From Candidatus Woesearchaeota archaeon (GTDB taxonomy: Archaea; Nanobdellota; Nanobdellia; Pacearchaeales; GW2011-AR1), in assembly GCA_964613185.1 (NCBI GenBank), contig CAZTIP010000002.1:15757-79756 (forward strand): 64,000 bases of DNA, given 5' to 3'. Each line of letters opens with the position of its first letter. Position 1 is the first letter of the stretch. A program made the position numbers and the translations under genes. Under the pieces are notes generated by a model. That model was not told the origin of the DNA. It saw only the letters and a list, made by a program, of their open reading frames with translations, and made no database searches. Shown here piece by piece: positions 1-46,392 of the stretch.

Positions 1-857
1 TTCGTGCTGATGGAAATGAGATTAATGGGCGTTTGATTGTTTTTGCTATCTTGCCCAAAGTTACAAGTTCTTCTATGTCGGCTATTGAAAGTTTACAAAA
101 AATTGCAGATAGTGAGATTTATCATGAAGTTACTAGAAAATTTGCCCAGGGAATTTTGGAAGATTATAAAAATTTAGATAAGGATTCTAAAATTGAAAAA
201 TTGGTTGAACTTGTAGAAGAAATTTCTAATCGAAGTGATGACGAAAAGATTTTGATTTATACACGTCATCCGACTACTTTAAGATATATTGTGAATAAAT
301 TGAAACCTCTTAATTTAAAAATTATTGAATTTATGGGTGGTCTTGATAGAGAAGAAAAATCTCGGAGAATTGATTCTTTTAAAAAAGGAGAGGCAGATAT
401 TTTGATTTCTACAGATACAGGTGCAGAAGGTTTGAATTTTCAGTTTTGTCGTAATCTGATTAATTATGATTTGCCTTGGAATCCCATGTCCGTTGAACAA
501 AGAATTGGAAGGTTGGACAGGATTGGACAAAAGAGAGATATGTATATTTATTCTTTTGCGACGAAAGGAACTATGGAAGAACATGTTGTTGATTTGATTA
601 TCAATAAAATGTGTTGTGTTGGGATGGTGATTGGAGAATTGCCAATTATCCTTTTTAATCTGGGATTAGATGGTGAAGGAGATTCTGGAAAGAATAAAAT
701 TGAAGAACGTTTGATGAATTCATTTATTGATTCAAAAGGAAATTTAGATTTGTTTAGTAAGGAAGTTGATGAAATTGCAGGGGTTGTTTCAAAAGGAATG
801 AAAGATTATGAAGAAGACAAAAAAAATAATGAGAATTTTTTAGATAAACCTCTTTGA
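1..857 (+). CDS. SNF2/Swi2-family helicase, C-terminal fragment. The frame is open to the left edge of the window, so this is a partial CDS.
   Basis: Helicase C-terminal motifs are present (DLPWNP and QRIGRLDRIGQ). No stop codon lies in frame upstream to position 1. Confidence 0.7.
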   Translation, partial: RADGNEINGRLIVFAILPKVTSSSMSAIESLQKIADSEIYHEVTRKFAQGILEDYKNLDKDSKIEKLVELVEEISNRSDDEKILIYTRHPTTLRYIVNKLKPLNLKIIEFMGGLDREEKSRRIDSFKKGEADILISTDTGAEGLNFQFCRNLINYDLPWNPMSVEQRIGRLDRIGQKRDMYIYSFATKGTMEEHVVDLIINKMCCVGMVIGELPIILFNLGLDGEGDSGKNKIEERLMNSFIDSKGNLDLFSKEVDEIAGVVSKGMKDYEEDKKNNENFLDKPL

Positions 858-3024: not shown

Positions 3025-3248
3025 TTTAAAATTTTTGAATCAAACGAGACCGCATGAAATCTCCTCGTAAATCACTCTAAAATTTTCTAATCACTTCTTT
3101 GAGAAAATTCAGACAATTCACTCCCCTCCATTTTGATGGGTCTTCGAACTCCTCACGAGCTCGGAGGGAATCGGCTTCGTGTCTGAGACACTCGCTAACA
3201 TCGGTCTCGCTTTGCTCACTGCGTTGTTAAACCCAAAGGTTCGATGAA

Positions 3249-3320
3249 CGAGCTCGGAGGGAATCGAACCCCCATCAACAGGGCCGAAACCTGTTATTCT
3301 GTCCATTAAACTACGAGCTC
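3249..3320 (-). tRNA. tRNA-Arg(TCG)
   Basis: The reverse complement reads GAGCTCGTAGTTTAATGGACAGAATAACAGGTTTCGGCCCTGTTGATGGGGGTTCGATTCCCTCCGAGCTCG. It has a 7-bp acceptor stem, the anticodon loop TTTCGGC and the T-loop GTTCGATTCC. The D-arm pairing is non-canonical. Confidence 0.7.
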
Positions 3321-3459
3321 ATTTGAGCAAGTTGTTTTCTTGAAGCAATGATTTGCTACCTTAAACTACGAGCTCTTTAATATTAATGTGACTTGGAAAG
3401 AACTTATAAAATTATCTAATTTCTTTTTTCATTAGTTTTAAATAACCTTATTCCCTTTT

Positions 3460-22025: not shown

Positions 22026-25000
22026 ATGAAATGGAGAGGGATGTTAGTTGTTTATTTGTTTTTGATAGCGTTGTTTTCGTTTTTTATTTTTTGGGATTAT
22101 GAAGATGTTTTGAGGAACATTGATGACCCTTTAGGCCCAGATTTTTTTGATAGTTCTTCTTCAAGTTCTTCTAATGACGGGGACGATTCTCTTTGTGGGA
22201 ATACTTATTGTGATGATAATGCAGAGGAGGATGGGATTAGTTGCCCTTCGGATTGTGTGACTCAATGTAATGACGGTGTTGATAACGACGGTGATGGTGA
22301 TGTAGATAATTTGGATAGTGGTTGTGTTGATGGAAATGATAACTTGGAATCTACAAGTTCTGGCGGCGGTGGAGGTTCTTCTGGTGGTTCTTCTGGAGGC
22401 GGGGGAAGTTCTGGCGGCGGTTCTTCGGGAGGTGGTTCTCCCTGCGGTAATGGGGTTTGTGATTCTGGAGAAGACCCGTTTAGTTGCTCGGTAGATTGTG
22501 GAACTTTTAGGTGTAGTGATGGATTGGATAATGATGCTGATGGATTGATTGATTTTCCAAATGATACTGCATGTATTGATGGATTTGACGACGTGGAAAC
22601 AGAGTTTGGTTTATTTGAATGTTATGATGGATTAGATAATGATGGGGATAATTTGACAGATTATTCTAATGATTCTGGATGCTTTGATTATTTTGATGAT
22701 AATGAAAGTTTAACTAATTGTAATGATGGTTTAGATAATGATGGTGATGGTTGGGTTGATTTTCCTGCAGATATTGGATGTTTAGATTCTAATGATAATA
22801 ATGAGTCTAATGATTTTACTTCTTTTGAATGTTCAAATGGTGTTGATGATGATTTGGATGGTTTAATTGACGGTTATGACCCTATCTGTTTGATTTGGAA
22901 TGATAGTTCTGAATTTGCTGAATGTAATGATTTGTTAGATAATGATAATGATACATTGATTGATTATCCTGATGATACTGGTTGTTCTGATTTGAATGAT
23001 GATAGTGAAGATGCTGATTGTTCTGATGAATTAGATAACGACGGAGATGGGTGGTTTGATTTCCCTGATGATCCTGGTTGTGATAGTTTAGGAGATGGGA
23101 ATGAGTCTAACGATTTTACTTCTTTCGAATGCTCGGACGGTTCAGATAACGACGGAGATGGTTTAATTGACGGTTATGACCCTATCTGTTTGATTTGGAA
23201 TGACGTTTCTGAAACAGGGGAATGTAATGATTTGGTAGATAACGACGGAGACGGGTGGGTAGATTTGGGAGACCCTGGATGTAATGATGTTAATGTGGTT
23301 AGTGAAGTTAATGGAGATACAGGTTATCAATGTTCTGATGGTTCAGATAATGATGAGGATGGTTTAATTGACGGTTATGATTTAATGTGTAGTTCTCCCA
23401 TAGATAATGACGAATATTCGCAATGTAATGATGGGGTTGATAATGATAATGATACTTTGATTGATTATCCAGATGATACTGGTTGTTCTGATTTGAATGA
23501 TGATAGTGAAAATACGGAGAATAATCAAGGGGGGGATCAAAATTTAATCGCATATTATGATTTTGAGAATGATGTTTTGGATTCTTCTGGAAGTGGTTAT
23601 GATGGGGTAAATAATGGGGGAACTTTTGATGCTGATGCTAAGATTGGAAGTTATTCTTTGGGCTTAGATGGCATTTCTAGTTATGTTTCCTTGCCTTCAA
23701 ATATTGCACTTAATGGAAATCAAGCGACGATTGCTTTCTGGTTTAAGGCTAATGATGTTAATGATTGGGGGAGGTTTATTTCTAAGGCAAATGGTGTTCA
23801 GGATGATAACCATTGGTGGATGATGAGTTTGAATAATGGACAATTAAGAAATCGTTTGAAAACTTTAGGTTCTACTTCTACTTTGAAAGGGGGAAGTTTG
23901 TCGACGGGAATTTGGACTCACGGGGTGATGGTTTATGATGGTTCCGAGGTTAGAATTTATGTTGATGGTTCGCAAGTTGCGATGCAAGTGAAAACAGGAA
24001 CTATTGATGTTGATGATTCTATCGAGGTTTGGATTGGTGCTAATCCAGGAGGGACTGATTATTACGATGGATTGATGGATGATTTGAGAATTTATGATAG
24101 AGTTTTGACTGATGATGAAATTGCAAGTTTGGCTGGGACTTCTTCGAGTGGTTCGACTTGTGGAGATTCTGTTTGTGATGCTGGTGAAAATCCATTTAGT
24201 TGTTCTTCTGATTGTGGAACTTATGTTTGCTCTGATGGATTAGATAACGACGGAGATGGATGGACTGATTTGGCAGACCCTGGTTGTGTTGATGGTTATG
24301 ATACTGACGAGACTAATGGCGATTTAGGTTATCAATGTTCTGATGGTTCAGATAATGATGAGGATGGTTTAATTGATGGAAATGATTTGATGTGTAGTTC
24401 TTGGAATGATAATAGTGAGGCTACTGAATGTTCTGACGGTTTAGATAACGATGGAGATGGATTTTGCGATTGGTCTGGAGGGACTTGCACTGATGGAAGT
24501 GTTCTGGGAGATAGCGATTGTAGTAGTTCTGAAGATAATAGTGAAAGTGGAATTTTGGGATGTCCAAATGGAAAACCTGGGCCGAGTAATACTGGGCCTT
24601 TGACACCTAAAAGTCAATTGACTCAAATGGGAGGCTTAACAATAACTCAGGATAATACGGTTCTTGAAGGTGTTTATATTAATGGAGGAGTAACTATCAA
24701 GGCAGATAATGTCATTATTAGAGATTTTGTAATTGAATGTGGTGATGGGTATACAGGTGCATCGTATTGTGTTAAATCTATCGACGGAGGAAGTGTAACT
24801 CTTGAAGATGGAGAGATATTTGGTGGAATGAGTGCAGCAGTTTATGGGAGTGATTTTATTTTAAGGAGAACTGAAATGCATACTTTAAAAAGTACTGCCT
24901 TGAGGCCCGGATCTAATGTAATTGTTGAGGAAAATTGGATACATCCTCCAATTACCTTTAATGGTGGATCTGAAGTTCAAACCATTTTTTCAGGAGCTAA

Positions 25001-27093: not shown

Positions 27094-27201
27094 ATATAAA
27101 TATTTTTAAATGTTTGATTTCTATTTGTTTTGTTTAGTGGGGGTAGTCCAGTTACACGATGTAAAATCGTTTCAAAAACAACCCATGTTAAAACAAAAAC
27201 C

Positions 27202-27272: not shown

Positions 27273-27364
27273 TTTTTGATTTGATTGTTCGAATTGCCCG
27301 AAGGGTATGCAGTTTACTGCCGAGGCTCGCGCATTTTTGATTTTATTTTTAAAATTATTTAAAA

Positions 27365-42526: not shown

Positions 42527-42567
42527 TTATTGGGGAATTAAAATTCGTTTATAAGAACTATTGCGAT

Positions 42568-44031
42568 TTAATGTCTATCTTTTCTTTTGAAGGTATTTCT
42601 ACCTCCGCCACGAAATCCATCCTTAGATTTGACTCTTTTGTTTCTTTCACCTCTGTCTTCTCTTCCAAATGAATTAGTTCTTTTTTTGTTTGGAGAATGC
42701 CTTCTAGAATCTGGCCTCCGGGATTTATTTCCCCCGAATCTTGAATTTCTTGAATTATTTCCTCCAAACCTTGAATTTTCGGAGCTATTTCCGCGATTAT
42801 TTGGTCTTCCTCTATTTCCTTGAGACCTTCCTCTATTTCCTTGAGACCTTCCTCTATTTCCTTGAGACCTTCCTCTGAAATTTCCCATTCTCTTTGGCTC
42901 ATCCCATTTTACATAAACCTTTTCAAATTTTGGGGTCATTTCTCTTTTTATTACGAAAGATGTGTTGTGTTTTTGAACATTTGAAAAATTATCATAATCT
43001 CTACTTGCTAAAATATTTATTGCGATACCTTCTTTTCCTGCTCTTGCCGTTCTTCCAATTCTATGAACGTAATCTTTTGCATCTGCTGTTACATCGTAGT
43101 TATAAACATGCGAAACATTTGGAATATCTAAACCTCTTGCTGCAACATCAGTACAGACTAAAACATTGACTTTCGAATTGTCAAAAGATTTTAAGACCCT
43201 GTTTCTTTTGTTTTGTTCCATCCCCCCATGAATTGCTTGAGAATTTATTCCTTTTTCTTTTAAATTTTTTGCAACAAAATCTGTATTTCTCCGAGTATTA
43301 CAAAAAATCATTACTAGGTGTGCACTTTCCCCTTTTAATAAATGAACTAACAATGAAAACTTTTCATTATCCTTTACATCATAATAAATTTGTTTTAATT
43401 TTGAAGCATCAACATAACTTTCTACTGAAATTTCCAAGGGAGATTTCATATATTTCCCTGAAAATTCTGCTAAATCTTCAGAAATTGTTGCCGAAAATAA
43501 TAACGTTTGTTTTTCTTTTGGACATGATTTTACAATTTTTCCAACATCTTCCTTAAATCCCATATCCCACATCCTATCTGCTTCATCTAAAACTAAAAAA
43601 TCTATTTTGCTTAAATCTATAGAGTTATGTTTTAGATGGTCTAATAATCTTCCAGGTGTTGCAACAACGATTTCTGAATAGGCGAGTTTTTTTGTTTGAT
43701 TTATCATTGAAACACCACCATATACAGAAGTTATTTCTAATTTTTTATGATATGAAAATTCTTCCATTGAATTTGCAACCTGTTCTGCTAGTTCTCTTGT
43801 TGGTGTCAAAATTAATGCTTGGATTCCTTCTCCTTTTTTAACATTTTTTATAATTCCTGAACCAAAAGCTAATGTTTTTCCAGAACCAGTTGCTGAGCCA
43901 GCTATGATGTCCTTTCCTTCAAGAATTAACGGGATTGTTTTTTCTTGAATTTCGCTTGGCTTTTTGAACTTTTTTGCTGAAATAATTTTCAACACATGCT
44001 CGCAAAGTCCTAATTTTTCGAACTTTTCCAT
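42568..44031 (-). CDS. DEAD-box RNA helicase with a C-terminal RG/RGG-rich tail
   Basis: Q-motif, GSGKT, DEAD and HRIGRTAR motifs. The tail contains RGRSQGN repeated three times. Confidence 0.9.
   Translation of the reverse strand: MEKFEKLGLCEHVLKIISAKKFKKPSEIQEKTIPLILEGKDIIAGSATGSGKTLAFGSGIIKNVKKGEGIQALILTPTRELAEQVANSMEEFSYHKKLEITSVYGGVSMINQTKKLAYSEIVVATPGRLLDHLKHNSIDLSKIDFLVLDEADRMWDMGFKEDVGKIVKSCPKEKQTLLFSATISEDLAEFSGKYMKSPLEISVESYVDASKLKQIYYDVKDNEKFSLLVHLLKGESAHLVMIFCNTRRNTDFVAKNLKEKGINSQAIHGGMEQNKRNRVLKSFDNSKVNVLVCTDVAARGLDIPNVSHVYNYDVTADAKDYVHRIGRTARAGKEGIAINILASRDYDNFSNVQKHNTSFVIKREMTPKFEKVYVKWDEPKRMGNFRGRSQGNRGRSQGNRGRSQGNRGRPNNRGNSSENSRFGGNNSRNSRFGGNKSRRPDSRRHSPNKKRTNSFGREDRGERNKRVKSKDGFRGGGRNTFKRKDRH
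42809..42871. repeat. 3 x 21-nt perfect tandem repeat (cctctatttccttgagacctt) encoding the RGRSQGN repeats of the helicase tail
   Basis: Direct reading of the sequence. Confidence 0.9.
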
Positions 44032-44318: not shown

Positions 44319-44415
44319 ATTTAAAAGACTTATTAGGTGTTAATTGTAATTGATTTGGCCCCGTAGGCTAAAGTAACATCGAAAATGTTCCGAGTATCCT
44401 ACTTTGCTAAAGTTT

Positions 44416-44523: not shown

Positions 44524-46392
44524 TTGATAATAATAATTATGGATGAAAATCACAAAGCTTCTTCTGAAAGTGAATCTGTAGAAAAAAATCTTTCTAAGGA
44601 TTATGTACCTAAATCTAAACTTGGAGCAATACCGATCTCTAATCAACTTGATGATGCCTTGAAAGAAAAACAAAAAAAGATTAATAAAGATATTGAAGAA
44701 TTTAGGGAGGAACTCAATAAAAAATTTAAATTTACTGAAGCATTTGGTTTAATCCCTTCTCAGGCCTCAAAAAAAATTGAAGAAGAATATGGAATTTCTG
44801 AAGAAGATTCAAAAAAAGAACTTATACATTTATTAATGGTTATTCCTGAAAAACAATTTAAAAATATTGGGAAAATTAAGCTAGAGGTTATTGAACTTTC
44901 TAAAAAAATTAATGATAAATTTTGGATTCATGTAGTTACTCCGATTGACATTTGGAATCTTGGACTTGATTCTAAGTTTGATATTATGGAAGCACTTGCA
45001 ATGTCTTATCCAATTTTTGATAAGGGAATTCTGAGTTCTATCCGAGTTTCTCAAATACATAAATCATTAGTTTTGAGAAAATTTGAAAAATATGTTACGA
45101 GTTATGTTGTCGGGGGATCGCTTGTTCGTGGAGAAACTTTGAAAACTTCTGATATTGATGTATTTATAATTATTGATGATACTGATGTTAAACGAATGTC
45201 TCGTTTAGAATTGAAAGAAAAACTTAGAGGAATAATTCATTCTTATGTTGCAGAAGCTGAGGCAATGGCAGGGGTTAAAAATAAACTTTCTCCACAAATT
45301 TATTTGATGACTGACTTTTGGGAAGCTGTAAAGGATGCACATCCAGTTATGTTTACATTTATTCGTGATGGAATTCCGCTTTATGATAGGGGAGCATTTT
45401 TACCTTGGAAATCTTTACTTAGGATGGGAAAAATAAAACCTAGTCCAGAAGCTATTGATATGTTTATGAGTTCAGGGAATAAATTAAAAACTACTATTGA
45501 AAAAAGAATTTTTGATGTTGCAACTATGGATCTTTTTTGGGGAATTTCAACACCTACCCAGGGACTTTTAATGTTATATGGTCAATCTCCTGGAAATGTT
45601 TATGATACTGTGAAGGCATTTAGAAAAACTTTTGTAGATAAAGAAAAACTTATAGAAAAGAAATATGCAGATATTCTTGATGAAATAATGATAAAAGTTT
45701 GGAAAGCTTATGAACATGGGAAATTAAAACCTGGAGATATTGATGGAAAAGAATTAGATAGGTTGTCTAAAGATGCATTGGATTATATTAAAAGAATTAA
45801 AAAATTAAGAGAACAAATTGAAAAAAGAATTCAAGAAAAATCTATTGAAAAAACTTATGAAGATACTTTTGGAATGGTTGGAGCTTTCTTGAAGAAAAAA
45901 TCTGAAAATGATATTTTGAAAGCTTTTGATAATGAACTTATTAGGAAAGGTAAATTTCCTCAAAGGTTTCTTAAGAATTTGAAATTTATTTCCAAAATTC
46001 GAACTGAAATAAAAAATAAAAATATTAAAAATATTAAAAAACCGATTTTAACTTCTAAACAAAGTCGCGATGTGGAGGATGCACGCAAATTTTCTGCAGA
46101 AATTATTGAATCACTTATAGAATATACTCAACGATGCGAATTTGCTTCAATGGAAAGATCTAAATTCTTAATTAATGGGAAAGATTCAAATGCCGAAGTT
46201 TTCTTTTTGAAAAATCTTTTTTTGGTTCAAGGTTCAAATATACAAAAGCTTTCTGGAGAAAAATTGATTAAATCGGATTCTGAAGAATTGAAAGAACAAC
46301 TTTTGGAACATGCAGATAATGATGGAAAAATTAATTTTAAATCCTTGGAAGTTTTAAAAAAGATTTTTGGTGATTTTGAATTGATTTATTAA
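44524..46392 (+). CDS. Large minimal-nucleotidyltransferase (Pol-beta superfamily) domain protein with N- and C-terminal extensions
   Basis: GGSLVRGETLKTSDIDVFIIIDD is a GS...SDxD NTase motif. The helical domain downstream is homologous to the one in 53378..54250. Confidence 0.5.
   Translation: MIIIIMDENHKASSESESVEKNLSKDYVPKSKLGAIPISNQLDDALKEKQKKINKDIEEFREELNKKFKFTEAFGLIPSQASKKIEEEYGISEEDSKKELIHLLMVIPEKQFKNIGKIKLEVIELSKKINDKFWIHVVTPIDIWNLGLDSKFDIMEALAMSYPIFDKGILSSIRVSQIHKSLVLRKFEKYVTSYVVGGSLVRGETLKTSDIDVFIIIDDTDVKRMSRLELKEKLRGIIHSYVAEAEAMAGVKNKLSPQIYLMTDFWEAVKDAHPVMFTFIRDGIPLYDRGAFLPWKSLLRMGKIKPSPEAIDMFMSSGNKLKTTIEKRIFDVATMDLFWGISTPTQGLLMLYGQSPGNVYDTVKAFRKTFVDKEKLIEKKYADILDEIMIKVWKAYEHGKLKPGDIDGKELDRLSKDALDYIKRIKKLREQIEKRIQEKSIEKTYEDTFGMVGAFLKKKSENDILKAFDNELIRKGKFPQRFLKNLKFISKIRTEIKNKNIKNIKKPILTSKQSRDVEDARKFSAEIIESLIEYTQRCEFASMERSKFLINGKDSNAEVFFLKNLFLVQGSNIQKLSGEKLIKSDSEELKEQLLEHADNDGKINFKSLEVLKKIFGDFELIY

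Follow-up and report, generated by a model that had tools for sequence, protein, structure and literature searches.

Partial copies of tRNA ends and small foreign modules at tRNA genes of a Woesearchaeota archaeon: possible scars of serial insertion

The tRNA-Arg gene and the partial copies of its ends

The window, that is, the whole stretch of 64,000 nt analysed here, has a G+C content of 30.5% and contains four tRNA genes (Arg, Gly, Tyr, and Val), as identified with ARAGORN and Rfam. The tRNA-Arg(TCG) gene is located at positions 3249–3320 on the minus strand (Rfam RF00005, 63.9 bits; ARAGORN 3248–3321, minus strand) and reads as an intact functional gene. Housekeeping genes lie nearby, encoding a prolyl-tRNA synthetase (ProRS), a deoxyhypusine synthase, a Fic protein, and a DHH/DHHA1 protein. 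The ProRS shares 82% identity with that of L001, a Candidatus Woesearchaeota genome bin, and further neighbouring proteins match proteins labelled Nanoarchaeota or Pacearchaeota (names as given by the sources). Scanning metagenomes with the 3' 23-mer of tRNA-Arg gave 18 loci; the tRNA-Arg sequence is nearly identical across all of them.

Both ends of the gene occur more than once. The 5' end, GAGCTCGTAGTTTAA (15 nt, 3306–3320), has an exact second copy at 3361–3375, with a period of 55 and 40 nt between the two. The 3' end, CGATTCCCTCCGAGCTCG (18 nt), together with one T (3248–3266), has an exact second copy at 3155–3173, with a period of 93. A third copy of the 3' end is found at 3044–3062 in decayed form, with 13 of 19 positions matching. 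Exact repeats of at least 14 nt within 300 nt were counted in the window and in its base shuffles: 0.34 such repeats are expected from shuffled windows and the real window has 20, four of which are at tRNA ends and G+C-rich. The copies of the tRNA-Arg ends are real and not due to chance. The first two had been recognized in a preliminary description of this DNA. The 5' copy is confirmed, its coordinates there (3360–3374) being one base off, and the 3' copy, given as 3156–3173, is confirmed at 3155–3173 (18/19 nt). The third copy, the antisense segments, and the conserved foreign cores described below had been overlooked.

Repeats of other kinds are present in the window as well. A 21-nt tandem unit at 42806–42855 (50 nt exact, period 21) falls within the minus-strand open reading frames 42558–42902 and 42568–44031 and encodes EEGLKEI repeats in the first of these frames. 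Clustered direct repeats of up to 47 nt, spaced 93–300 nt and unrelated to tRNAs, occupy positions 22355–23180.

The 5' module and the tRNA-Arg promoter

The 5' module is composed, in order, of an outer sense copy of the tRNA 5' end, a hairpin (hp1), a purine triplet, a stretch partially antisense to tRNA nucleotides 1–13, and an A-rich linker that leads into the tRNA. The outer copy (S; 3361–3375, minus strand) corresponds to nucleotides 1–15, is present in L001/L013 and L012 too, and contains the predicted start of the primary transcript. Hairpin hp1 (3339–3360, minus strand) has the sequence GGTAGCAAATCATTGCTTCAAG and the stem AGCAA/TTGCT, the pairing of which is kept through two-sided changes in L012. 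The antisense stretch (AS; AAAACAACTTGCTC, 3325–3338, minus strand) is partly complementary to nucleotides 1–13, with mismatches at 5, 6, and 9. The linker AAAT (3321–3324, minus strand) separates AS from tRNA +1; related modules have linkers of 4–20 nt. The same layout is seen at tRNA-Val and tRNA-Gly of the window, at tRNA-Arg of L001 and L012, at tRNA-Val of L024, and at tRNA-Ser of L010. Selection on the outer copy was considered and rejected: the flanks of the window and of L001 are about 85–90% identical, and 15 unchanged bases in two such closely related loci are unsurprising.

A TATA-like promoter box, TTTTATAAG, is positioned at 3403–3411 on the minus strand and is kept in 14 related loci. 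The distance from its end is 27 nt to the outer copy and 82 nt to tRNA-Arg. Where the outer copy is absent, as in 11 related tRNA-Arg loci, the box ends 24–28 nt before tRNA +1, and in three other loci with an outer 5' copy it ends 23–24 nt before the copy. Given the spacing in the copy-free loci, the proposal that the box serves the upstream partial copy holds, although the box is not near 3395, where it had been placed. Transcription of tRNA-Arg should start at the outer 5' copy and, because the promoter is ahead of this copy, tRNA-Arg would be made with a 55-nt hairpin leader.

In the minimum-energy fold of the leader (-13.5 kcal/mol, z = -3.1), AS pairs with the outer copy and hp1 forms the apex of the predicted hairpin. 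RNAalifold gives an alternative fold in which the inner copy is the partner of AS. One long-hairpin topology is predicted for five leaders, which come from four tRNA species (z = -3.1, -4.9, -2.1, -0.3, and -0.8). The complementarity of AS to the tRNA has a p value of 0.29 in the tRNA-Arg module of the window and 0.0055 in that of L012, the range over all 5' modules being 0.005–0.7. Since these matches are individually weak, we grade the antisense stretch of the 5' modules as a likely genuine feature and no higher. Inspection of the leader and the type B core (see below) by eye revealed no C/D-box, H/ACA, or K-turn motif, and Rfam, both at gathering scores and at E values up to 10, recognized the tRNA and no other RNA family.

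The 3' modules of tRNA-Arg

The 3' modules have a general layout of their own: first a T after the tRNA, next a stretch that is antisense to the T-loop and to the 5' strand of the T-stem, then a turn of 3–4 nt, a short sense stretch, a foreign core, and a copy of the tRNA 3' end. Of 12 modules, 8 have a significant antisense match (p = 0.001–0.01). The modules bear end signatures, AATCGAACCC-loop-GGGTT on the left and CGAAGG plus the copy on the right. In the window, two modules are arranged in series, type A with a perfect copy and then type B with the 13/19 copy.

The type A module (3174–3248, minus strand) aligns at its ends with the type A modules of L007, L009, L012, and L019 and differs from them in its interior. 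It starts with T, followed by the antisense ATCGAACC (3238–3245, minus strand), which is the reverse complement of T-arm nucleotides 52–59 (p = 0.06 for the match in the window and 0.004–0.008 in the relatives). After a ttt loop comes the sense stretch GGGTT (3230–3234, minus strand); the rest is a foreign core with the hairpin GTGTC-TCA-GACAC and then the end motif ACGAAGC. The first displaced 3' copy (S'2; 3155–3173, minus strand), an exact repeat of nucleotides 56–73 plus T (19/19 identical), closes the module. All five type A modules close with a copy that begins at C56.

The type B module (3063–3154, minus strand) forms with the tRNA an inverted repeat of 27 nt that is 74% complementary. 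Its antisense stretch, GAGGAGTTCGAAGACCCATCA (3134–3154, minus strand), is approximately the reverse complement of nucleotides 45–65. Beyond it are a sense stretch, TGGAGGGG, and a foreign core containing the block GAATTTTCTC...TAGAAAATTTTAGAGTGA, of which the 18-mer TAGAAAATTTTAGAGTGA is identical in L009 and L011. The second 3' copy, AGATTTCATGCGGTCTCGT (3044–3062, minus strand), was located by the repeat search and can be aligned with the copies that terminate the type B modules of L009 and L011.

Degraded tRNA copies were considered as a source of the cores and rejected (local alignment to sense and antisense tRNA, p = 0.1–1.0). The module cores are foreign and not derived from tRNA.

Modules at the other tRNA genes of the window

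A repeat search over the window bears out the earlier observation that the pattern recurs at tRNA-Gly and tRNA-Val but not at tRNA-Tyr, which has no flanking end copies. The 5' module of tRNA-Gly (27137–27201) is made up of a diverged outer copy, GTGGGGGTAGTCCAGT (27137–27152, 12/16), a hairpin, ACGAT-GTAAA-ATCGT, and an antisense stretch, AACAACCCA, which matches the true tRNA better than the outer copy. On the other side of tRNA-Gly, a 20-nt copy of the 3' end (27263/27324) accompanies a 3' module (27273–27343) with the core GCCCGAAGGGTA.

The 5' module of tRNA-Val (44354–44414) has a 17-nt copy of the 5' end (44354/44413) and an Arg-like architecture; the duplication begins 3 nt upstream of the tRNA. 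In L024 (7560–7626), the outer copy of tRNA-Val is missing GGCC and carries a C-to-A change that gives better pairing with the antisense stretch. Between the window and L024, the tRNA-Val genes are 100% identical, the flanks 90–95%, and the modules about 65%, and a protein neighbouring tRNA-Val in L024 is 86% identical to that of the window. Downstream of tRNA-Val, at 44539–46389, the window encodes a highly conserved 617-aa nucleotidyltransferase-domain protein (3771 matches at E values up to 1e-20, the best 120 at 65–86% identity), which is also syntenic with tRNA-Val in L024–L027.

Distribution and polymorphism among related loci

Modules of the same families are found in related genomes. 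Type A modules are present in L007, L009, L012 (as a perfect tandem), and L019, with conserved ends and variable interiors, and type B modules in L009 and L011. The core GCCCGAAGGGTA of the tRNA-Gly module in the window also occurs at tRNA-Val of L025–L027, and an E core is found at tRNA-Arg of L003, at tRNA-Val of L027, and, inverted, in L009; the flanks of these core families are specific to the tRNA concerned. L001, the closest relative, has the 5' module in common with the window and an unrelated 3' module, types A and B being found in more distant loci. At tRNA-Ser(GCT) of a marine-sediment contig (L010, 711–831), two 5' modules stand in tandem, each after an exact 14–15-nt copy of the tRNA 5' end. 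These comparisons show module families spread over tRNA-Arg, tRNA-Val, tRNA-Gly, and tRNA-Ser genes of archaea that appear Woesearchaeota/Pacearchaeota-like. Away from tRNA loci, a search for the core motifs with mismatches allowed found none in 228 kb of related DNA, a small sample, beyond a few weak matches in coding DNA. On the L010 contig, an opposite-strand tRNA-Arg is situated about 110 nt from tRNA-Ser(GCT).

The order of modules differs between arrays: A precedes B in the window, and the order is B, A, and then a third module, F, in L009. In the arrays of the window, L009, and L027, it is the most distal copy that has decayed. A difference in occupancy is seen between L017 (empty) and L019 (occupied), which are 95.8% identical over 1 kb and differ solely by a clean 104-nt type A module plus the duplicated end. 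This difference could arise from an insertion or from a deletion between direct repeats; we infer the former.

The duplications are 10–32 nt long on the 3' side and 14–17 nt on the 5' side, and some of them reach into the host-specific trailer (11 nt in L001, at least 10 nt at tRNA-Gly). In L001 (2960–3111), the duplication at tRNA-Arg is 22 nt long with the 11 nt of trailer included, and the hairpin after each copy has the same arms and an inverted loop (TAAAT versus ATTTA), as if flipped.

Individual loci have features of their own. In L011 (approximately 60–160, minus strand), a degenerate second tRNA-Arg begins within the 3' acceptor strand of the intact gene, with the palindrome GAGCTCG common to both; directly behind its nucleotide 37, where introns canonically lie, it has a type B/E core, and its anticodon stem is unpaired. 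In L020 (approximately 1660–1810), a tRNA-Arg-like sequence with a GAGTTCG acceptor is interrupted by about 85 nt after nucleotide 36 and is missing nucleotides 37–48; about 150 nt downstream (1960–2001), an apparently normal copy with its own TATA box is cut by the contig end. In L027 (9560–9715), a run of N, from masking or an assembly gap, separates two identical tRNA-Val copies with identical promoters, possibly a scaffolding artefact.

Integrative elements at tRNA genes of related genomes

A search of the window and the tRNA-Arg loci with the integrase of the clade (tblastn) found no integrase or transposase. Integrases are located only beside tRNA-Tyr and tRNA-Asp in other genomes, where a tyrosine integrase of 390–400 aa is encoded directly 3' of the tRNA on the same strand (L025, 2207–3573; L028, 7424–8790; L030, 6611–7941; L031; L032). 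The family has 2170 matches at E values up to 1e-10. The integrase gene is followed by genes for a TrbC/T4SS pilin, a VirB4/TraC-like ATPase, DNA methylases, and a restriction enzyme, and by their gene content these regions look like integrative conjugative elements of Pacearchaeota/Woesearchaeota. In L027, only an N-terminal remnant of the integrase is left at the same place. The far repeat of the integrase-bearing elements falls beyond the sequence covered.

Contigs L006 and L016, from sister assemblies, have tRNA-Arg, a mini-module (C), and the copy in common. In L006, an island of at least 3.5 kb follows that opens with the first 38 nt of module C, and in L016 the sequence passes into host DNA after 10 nt. 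The island encodes a 141-aa open reading frame (HIT-like, as judged by eye) and then a GmrSD/DUF262 nuclease. A search for its far end through homologues of the nuclease led to contigs L033–L036, which are without the tRNA or from another organism.

Origin of the modules

The duplicated tRNA ends are what serial insertion of miniature, non-autonomous elements could have left behind as att-type duplications. This is the reading that we prefer, and we give it an even chance of being correct. Small non-coding modules would insert serially into both ends of tRNA-Arg, each insertion regenerating the intact tRNA while a copy of the recombined end is moved away from it. On the 3' side, the modules next to the tRNA would be the newer ones, and older ones would drift distally and decay, as the perfect copy of module A and the 13/19 copy of module B suggest. 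On the 5' side, the module would land between the unchanged promoter and the gene, giving a 55-nt leader in the form of one hairpin, with the outer copy paired with the antisense stretch. RNase P would presumably remove this leader. Nearly all Archaea, DPANN among them, reportedly have RNase P proteins (PMC6380272), so such removal would require no special pathway. The integrase machinery of the clade, together with the likeness between the L006 island and module C, leads us to read the modules as, most likely, miniature and non-autonomous: either relatives of integrative elements or what deletion has left of them, set in motion in trans by tyrosine integrases like those next to tRNA genes of related genomes.

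The preliminary description had listed micro-insertions and attL/attR-like scars among its options, and the general idea gains support from the comparative data, the polymorphism, the tandem arrays with their age gradient, and the integrase elements near tRNA genes of relatives. Exact terminal repeats of 15 and 19 nt surround the intact tRNA-Arg, as expected of att sites, and L017 and L019 provide an empty and an occupied site that differ by the 104-nt indel. Several findings speak against att-type scars. The window encodes neither an integrase nor a transposase, and no excised form was observed. The left ends of the integrase-bearing elements (AATACCTTCTTGGCA...) are unlike the module ends, modules of 40–130 nt are very small for site-specific integration as circles, and simple att scars do not predict antisense stretches beside the tRNA, which are strong on the 3' side and weaker on the 5' side. 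The duplications that run into the host trailer fit duplication in place as well as att identity. Searching viral contigs for the att sequence ATTCCCTCCGAGCTCG yielded chance matches only, inside high-G+C phage genes.

The modules may instead represent an undescribed class of miniature mobile element specific to DPANN tRNA ends. Their single-stranded sense and antisense arms would mimic a double-stranded target, and the recombinase would act on the folded hairpin, as with integron attC and CTX phage; or else the antisense arms may serve as RNA-level switches of pre-tRNA folding. We consider this unlikely, although if either version were true, these lineages would have in the modules a major cause of disrupted tRNA genes that has been overlooked until now.

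The sense-antisense-sense layout could alternatively reflect a hairpin-type recombination site or template switching. According to the latter, local replication or repair would switch templates at the hairpin-prone D- and T-arms and produce sense-antisense-sense micro-triplications with no mobile element involved. The layout does appear on both sides of the gene, the type B antisense copy mirrors nucleotides 45–65 about the palindromic acceptor CGAGCTCG, some duplications extend into the host-specific trailer, and L012 has its perfect tandem of type A. Template switching does not account for the foreign cores between the tRNA-derived pieces or for the family-specific copy boundaries. Moreover, the cores are homologous between genomes and between tRNA species, so random template switches cannot be their source, and we hold this explanation to be improbable.

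Transposition in the manner of MITEs would have a transposase or casposase-like enzyme make long staggered cuts in tRNA genes, leaving target-site duplications of 10–30 nt. Exact duplications of 14–17 nt at four different tRNA 5' ends, always closing at nucleotide 14–15, would fit such cuts, as would the E core, whose terminal inverted repeats are imperfect and which is found in either orientation, and the existence of tandem insertions. The 3' duplications, however, have no fixed length (10–32 nt), the 5' modules have no conserved terminal inverted repeats, no copies off tRNA genes were seen in the small 228-kb sample, and no transposase or Cas1 gene was found. We regard MITE-like transposition as improbable too.

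We attach an equally small probability to a functional RNA, that is, a leader hairpin and antisense trailer selected to control the folding, processing, or stability of the pre-tRNA. The 5' module is within the transcription unit, the hp1 stem retains its pairing through double changes, the 5' module of tRNA-Arg is kept in the window, L001, and L012, and streamlined genomes should readily lose DNA flanked by direct repeats. The single topology of the five leaders from four tRNA species is backed by z scores of -3.1, -4.9, and -2.1 in three of them, but the other two (z = -0.3 and -0.8) are no better than shuffles. Against selection, 11 of 15 tRNA-Arg loci do without the module, the modules change faster than the flanking promoter and trailer, the outer copy decays (tRNA-Val of L024, tRNA-Gly of the window), T-runs in type A modules argue against transcription of the distal half, and Rfam has no matching family.

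Introns and split genes

DPANN archaea have tRNA introns at non-canonical positions (PMC5829648), and their endonucleases with an L3 loop have been associated with many disrupted tRNA genes (PMC5829648). Applied here, such introns would make the outer copies the true exons, with the splicing endonuclease removing the module and the inner copy. The boundaries of the copies are compatible in that position 15/16 and the T-loop are known archaeal intron sites. The promoter suits the outer 5' copy and precedes it, as one transcript through copy and tRNA would have it, and in the RNAalifold structure the 3' acceptor strand is the pairing partner of the outer copy.

A bulge-helix-bulge (BHB) motif was defined as two 3-nt bulges around a 4-bp helix, or its relaxed form, at the exon-intron junctions. 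No strict or relaxed BHB was found for any tRNA-restoring deletion at tRNA-Arg, tRNA-Gly, and tRNA-Val of the window and at seven related loci. None of the candidates had flanking helices as well as a paired central helix. The best candidates have a mismatched and wobble-rich central helix and flanking helices of 0–4 bp, and the best conserved one has one Watson-Crick pair, two wobbles, and one mismatch. ARAGORN, run with introns of up to 300 nt, returned no additional or alternative tRNA.

The window and every full-length related locus contain an intact, high-scoring tRNA, which rules out a split or permuted tRNA gene. The would-be exon copies are not conserved: GGCC is missing from the outer tRNA-Val copy of L024, the outer tRNA-Gly copy matches at 12 of 16 positions, and the second 3' copy of tRNA-Arg at 13 of 19. 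The missing GGCC belongs to the acceptor strand, so the L024 copy cannot be an exon. In addition, most related loci and type A modules have terminator-like runs of T5–T8 between the tRNA and the 3' copy, the type A module of the window itself being free of such a run. With no BHB, decayed copies, and an intact tRNA throughout, non-canonical introns are very improbable; of the earlier suggestion of an intron or leader, the leader part holds by the promoter position and the intron part is not supported. In annotation, the tRNA should be assigned to the intact inner gene, and none of the flanking copies should be treated as an exon.

Comparison with known systems

DPANN archaea are known for an unusual degree of disruption in their tRNA genes, and predicting their sets of tRNAs is difficult. 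Continued insertion of modules at both tRNA ends, if it takes place, could explain stray tRNA fragments, long structured leaders, and mis-annotated pseudo-tRNAs, and possibly the origin of introns and split genes. It would also allow site-specific insertion into tRNA genes to be studied in a compact natural setting, in organisms that have yet to be grown alone.

Archaeal BHB introns resemble the modules in their patchy distribution among related tRNA genes and in that related inserts occur in different tRNAs. They differ in that here BHB motifs are absent, the tRNA is complete without splicing, and the flanking 'exons' are decaying.

CIMEs (cis-mobilizable elements) of Streptococcus thermophilus, as Pavlovic et al. 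reportedly described in 2004, arise by accretion and deletion of integrative conjugative elements. They are said to be kilobases long, experimentally mobilised, att-flanked, and arranged in tandem at one attachment site, with an integrase acting in trans. CIMEs are like the modules in being non-autonomous, att-flanked DNA in tandem arrays served by a trans-acting integrase. The archaeal modules, which would follow a comparable logic, are only about 100 nt long, and their mobilisation is so far a proposal.

Integration of archaeal elements at either the 5' or the 3' end of a tRNA gene, with tRNA fragments left behind, is documented (PMC3293823, PMC9897764). Elements with SSV1-type or pNOB8-type tyrosine integrases likewise target tRNA genes and regenerate an intact tRNA, with a partial end copy bounding the insert (PMC3293823). 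The pNOB8-type layout is seen in the relatives of this organism, with an intact integrase gene directly 3' of the tRNA on the same strand. Unlike these elements, the modules are only 40–130 nt long, non-coding, and without integrase, and they are found on both sides of one gene. The 5' one is inside the transcription unit, and the modules begin with an antisense copy of the adjacent tRNA arm.

At tRNA-Thr of Caldiarchaeum subterraneum, a 5' fragment is found upstream as a direct repeat, close genomes are heterogeneous, and a mobile element has been proposed, as is the case here (Sugahara et al. 2012, PMC3293823). There, however, the inserted DNA measures 1.8 kb and carries a recombinase gene, and the additional sequence within the tRNA is a spliceable intron (PMC3293823), whereas the insert described here is 40 nt with no splice motif. 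In Thermococcaceae, partial non-functional tRNA copies near or away from the canonical gene also stem from integration (van der Gulik et al. 2023, PMC9897764). The elements flanked by those fragments measure kilobases, and no antisense segments or recurrent mini-cores have been described for them (PMC9897764). For the DNA analysed here, the insertion-scar reading is supported in outline, and the comparison with relatives extends it to tRNA-end modules throughout the lineage.
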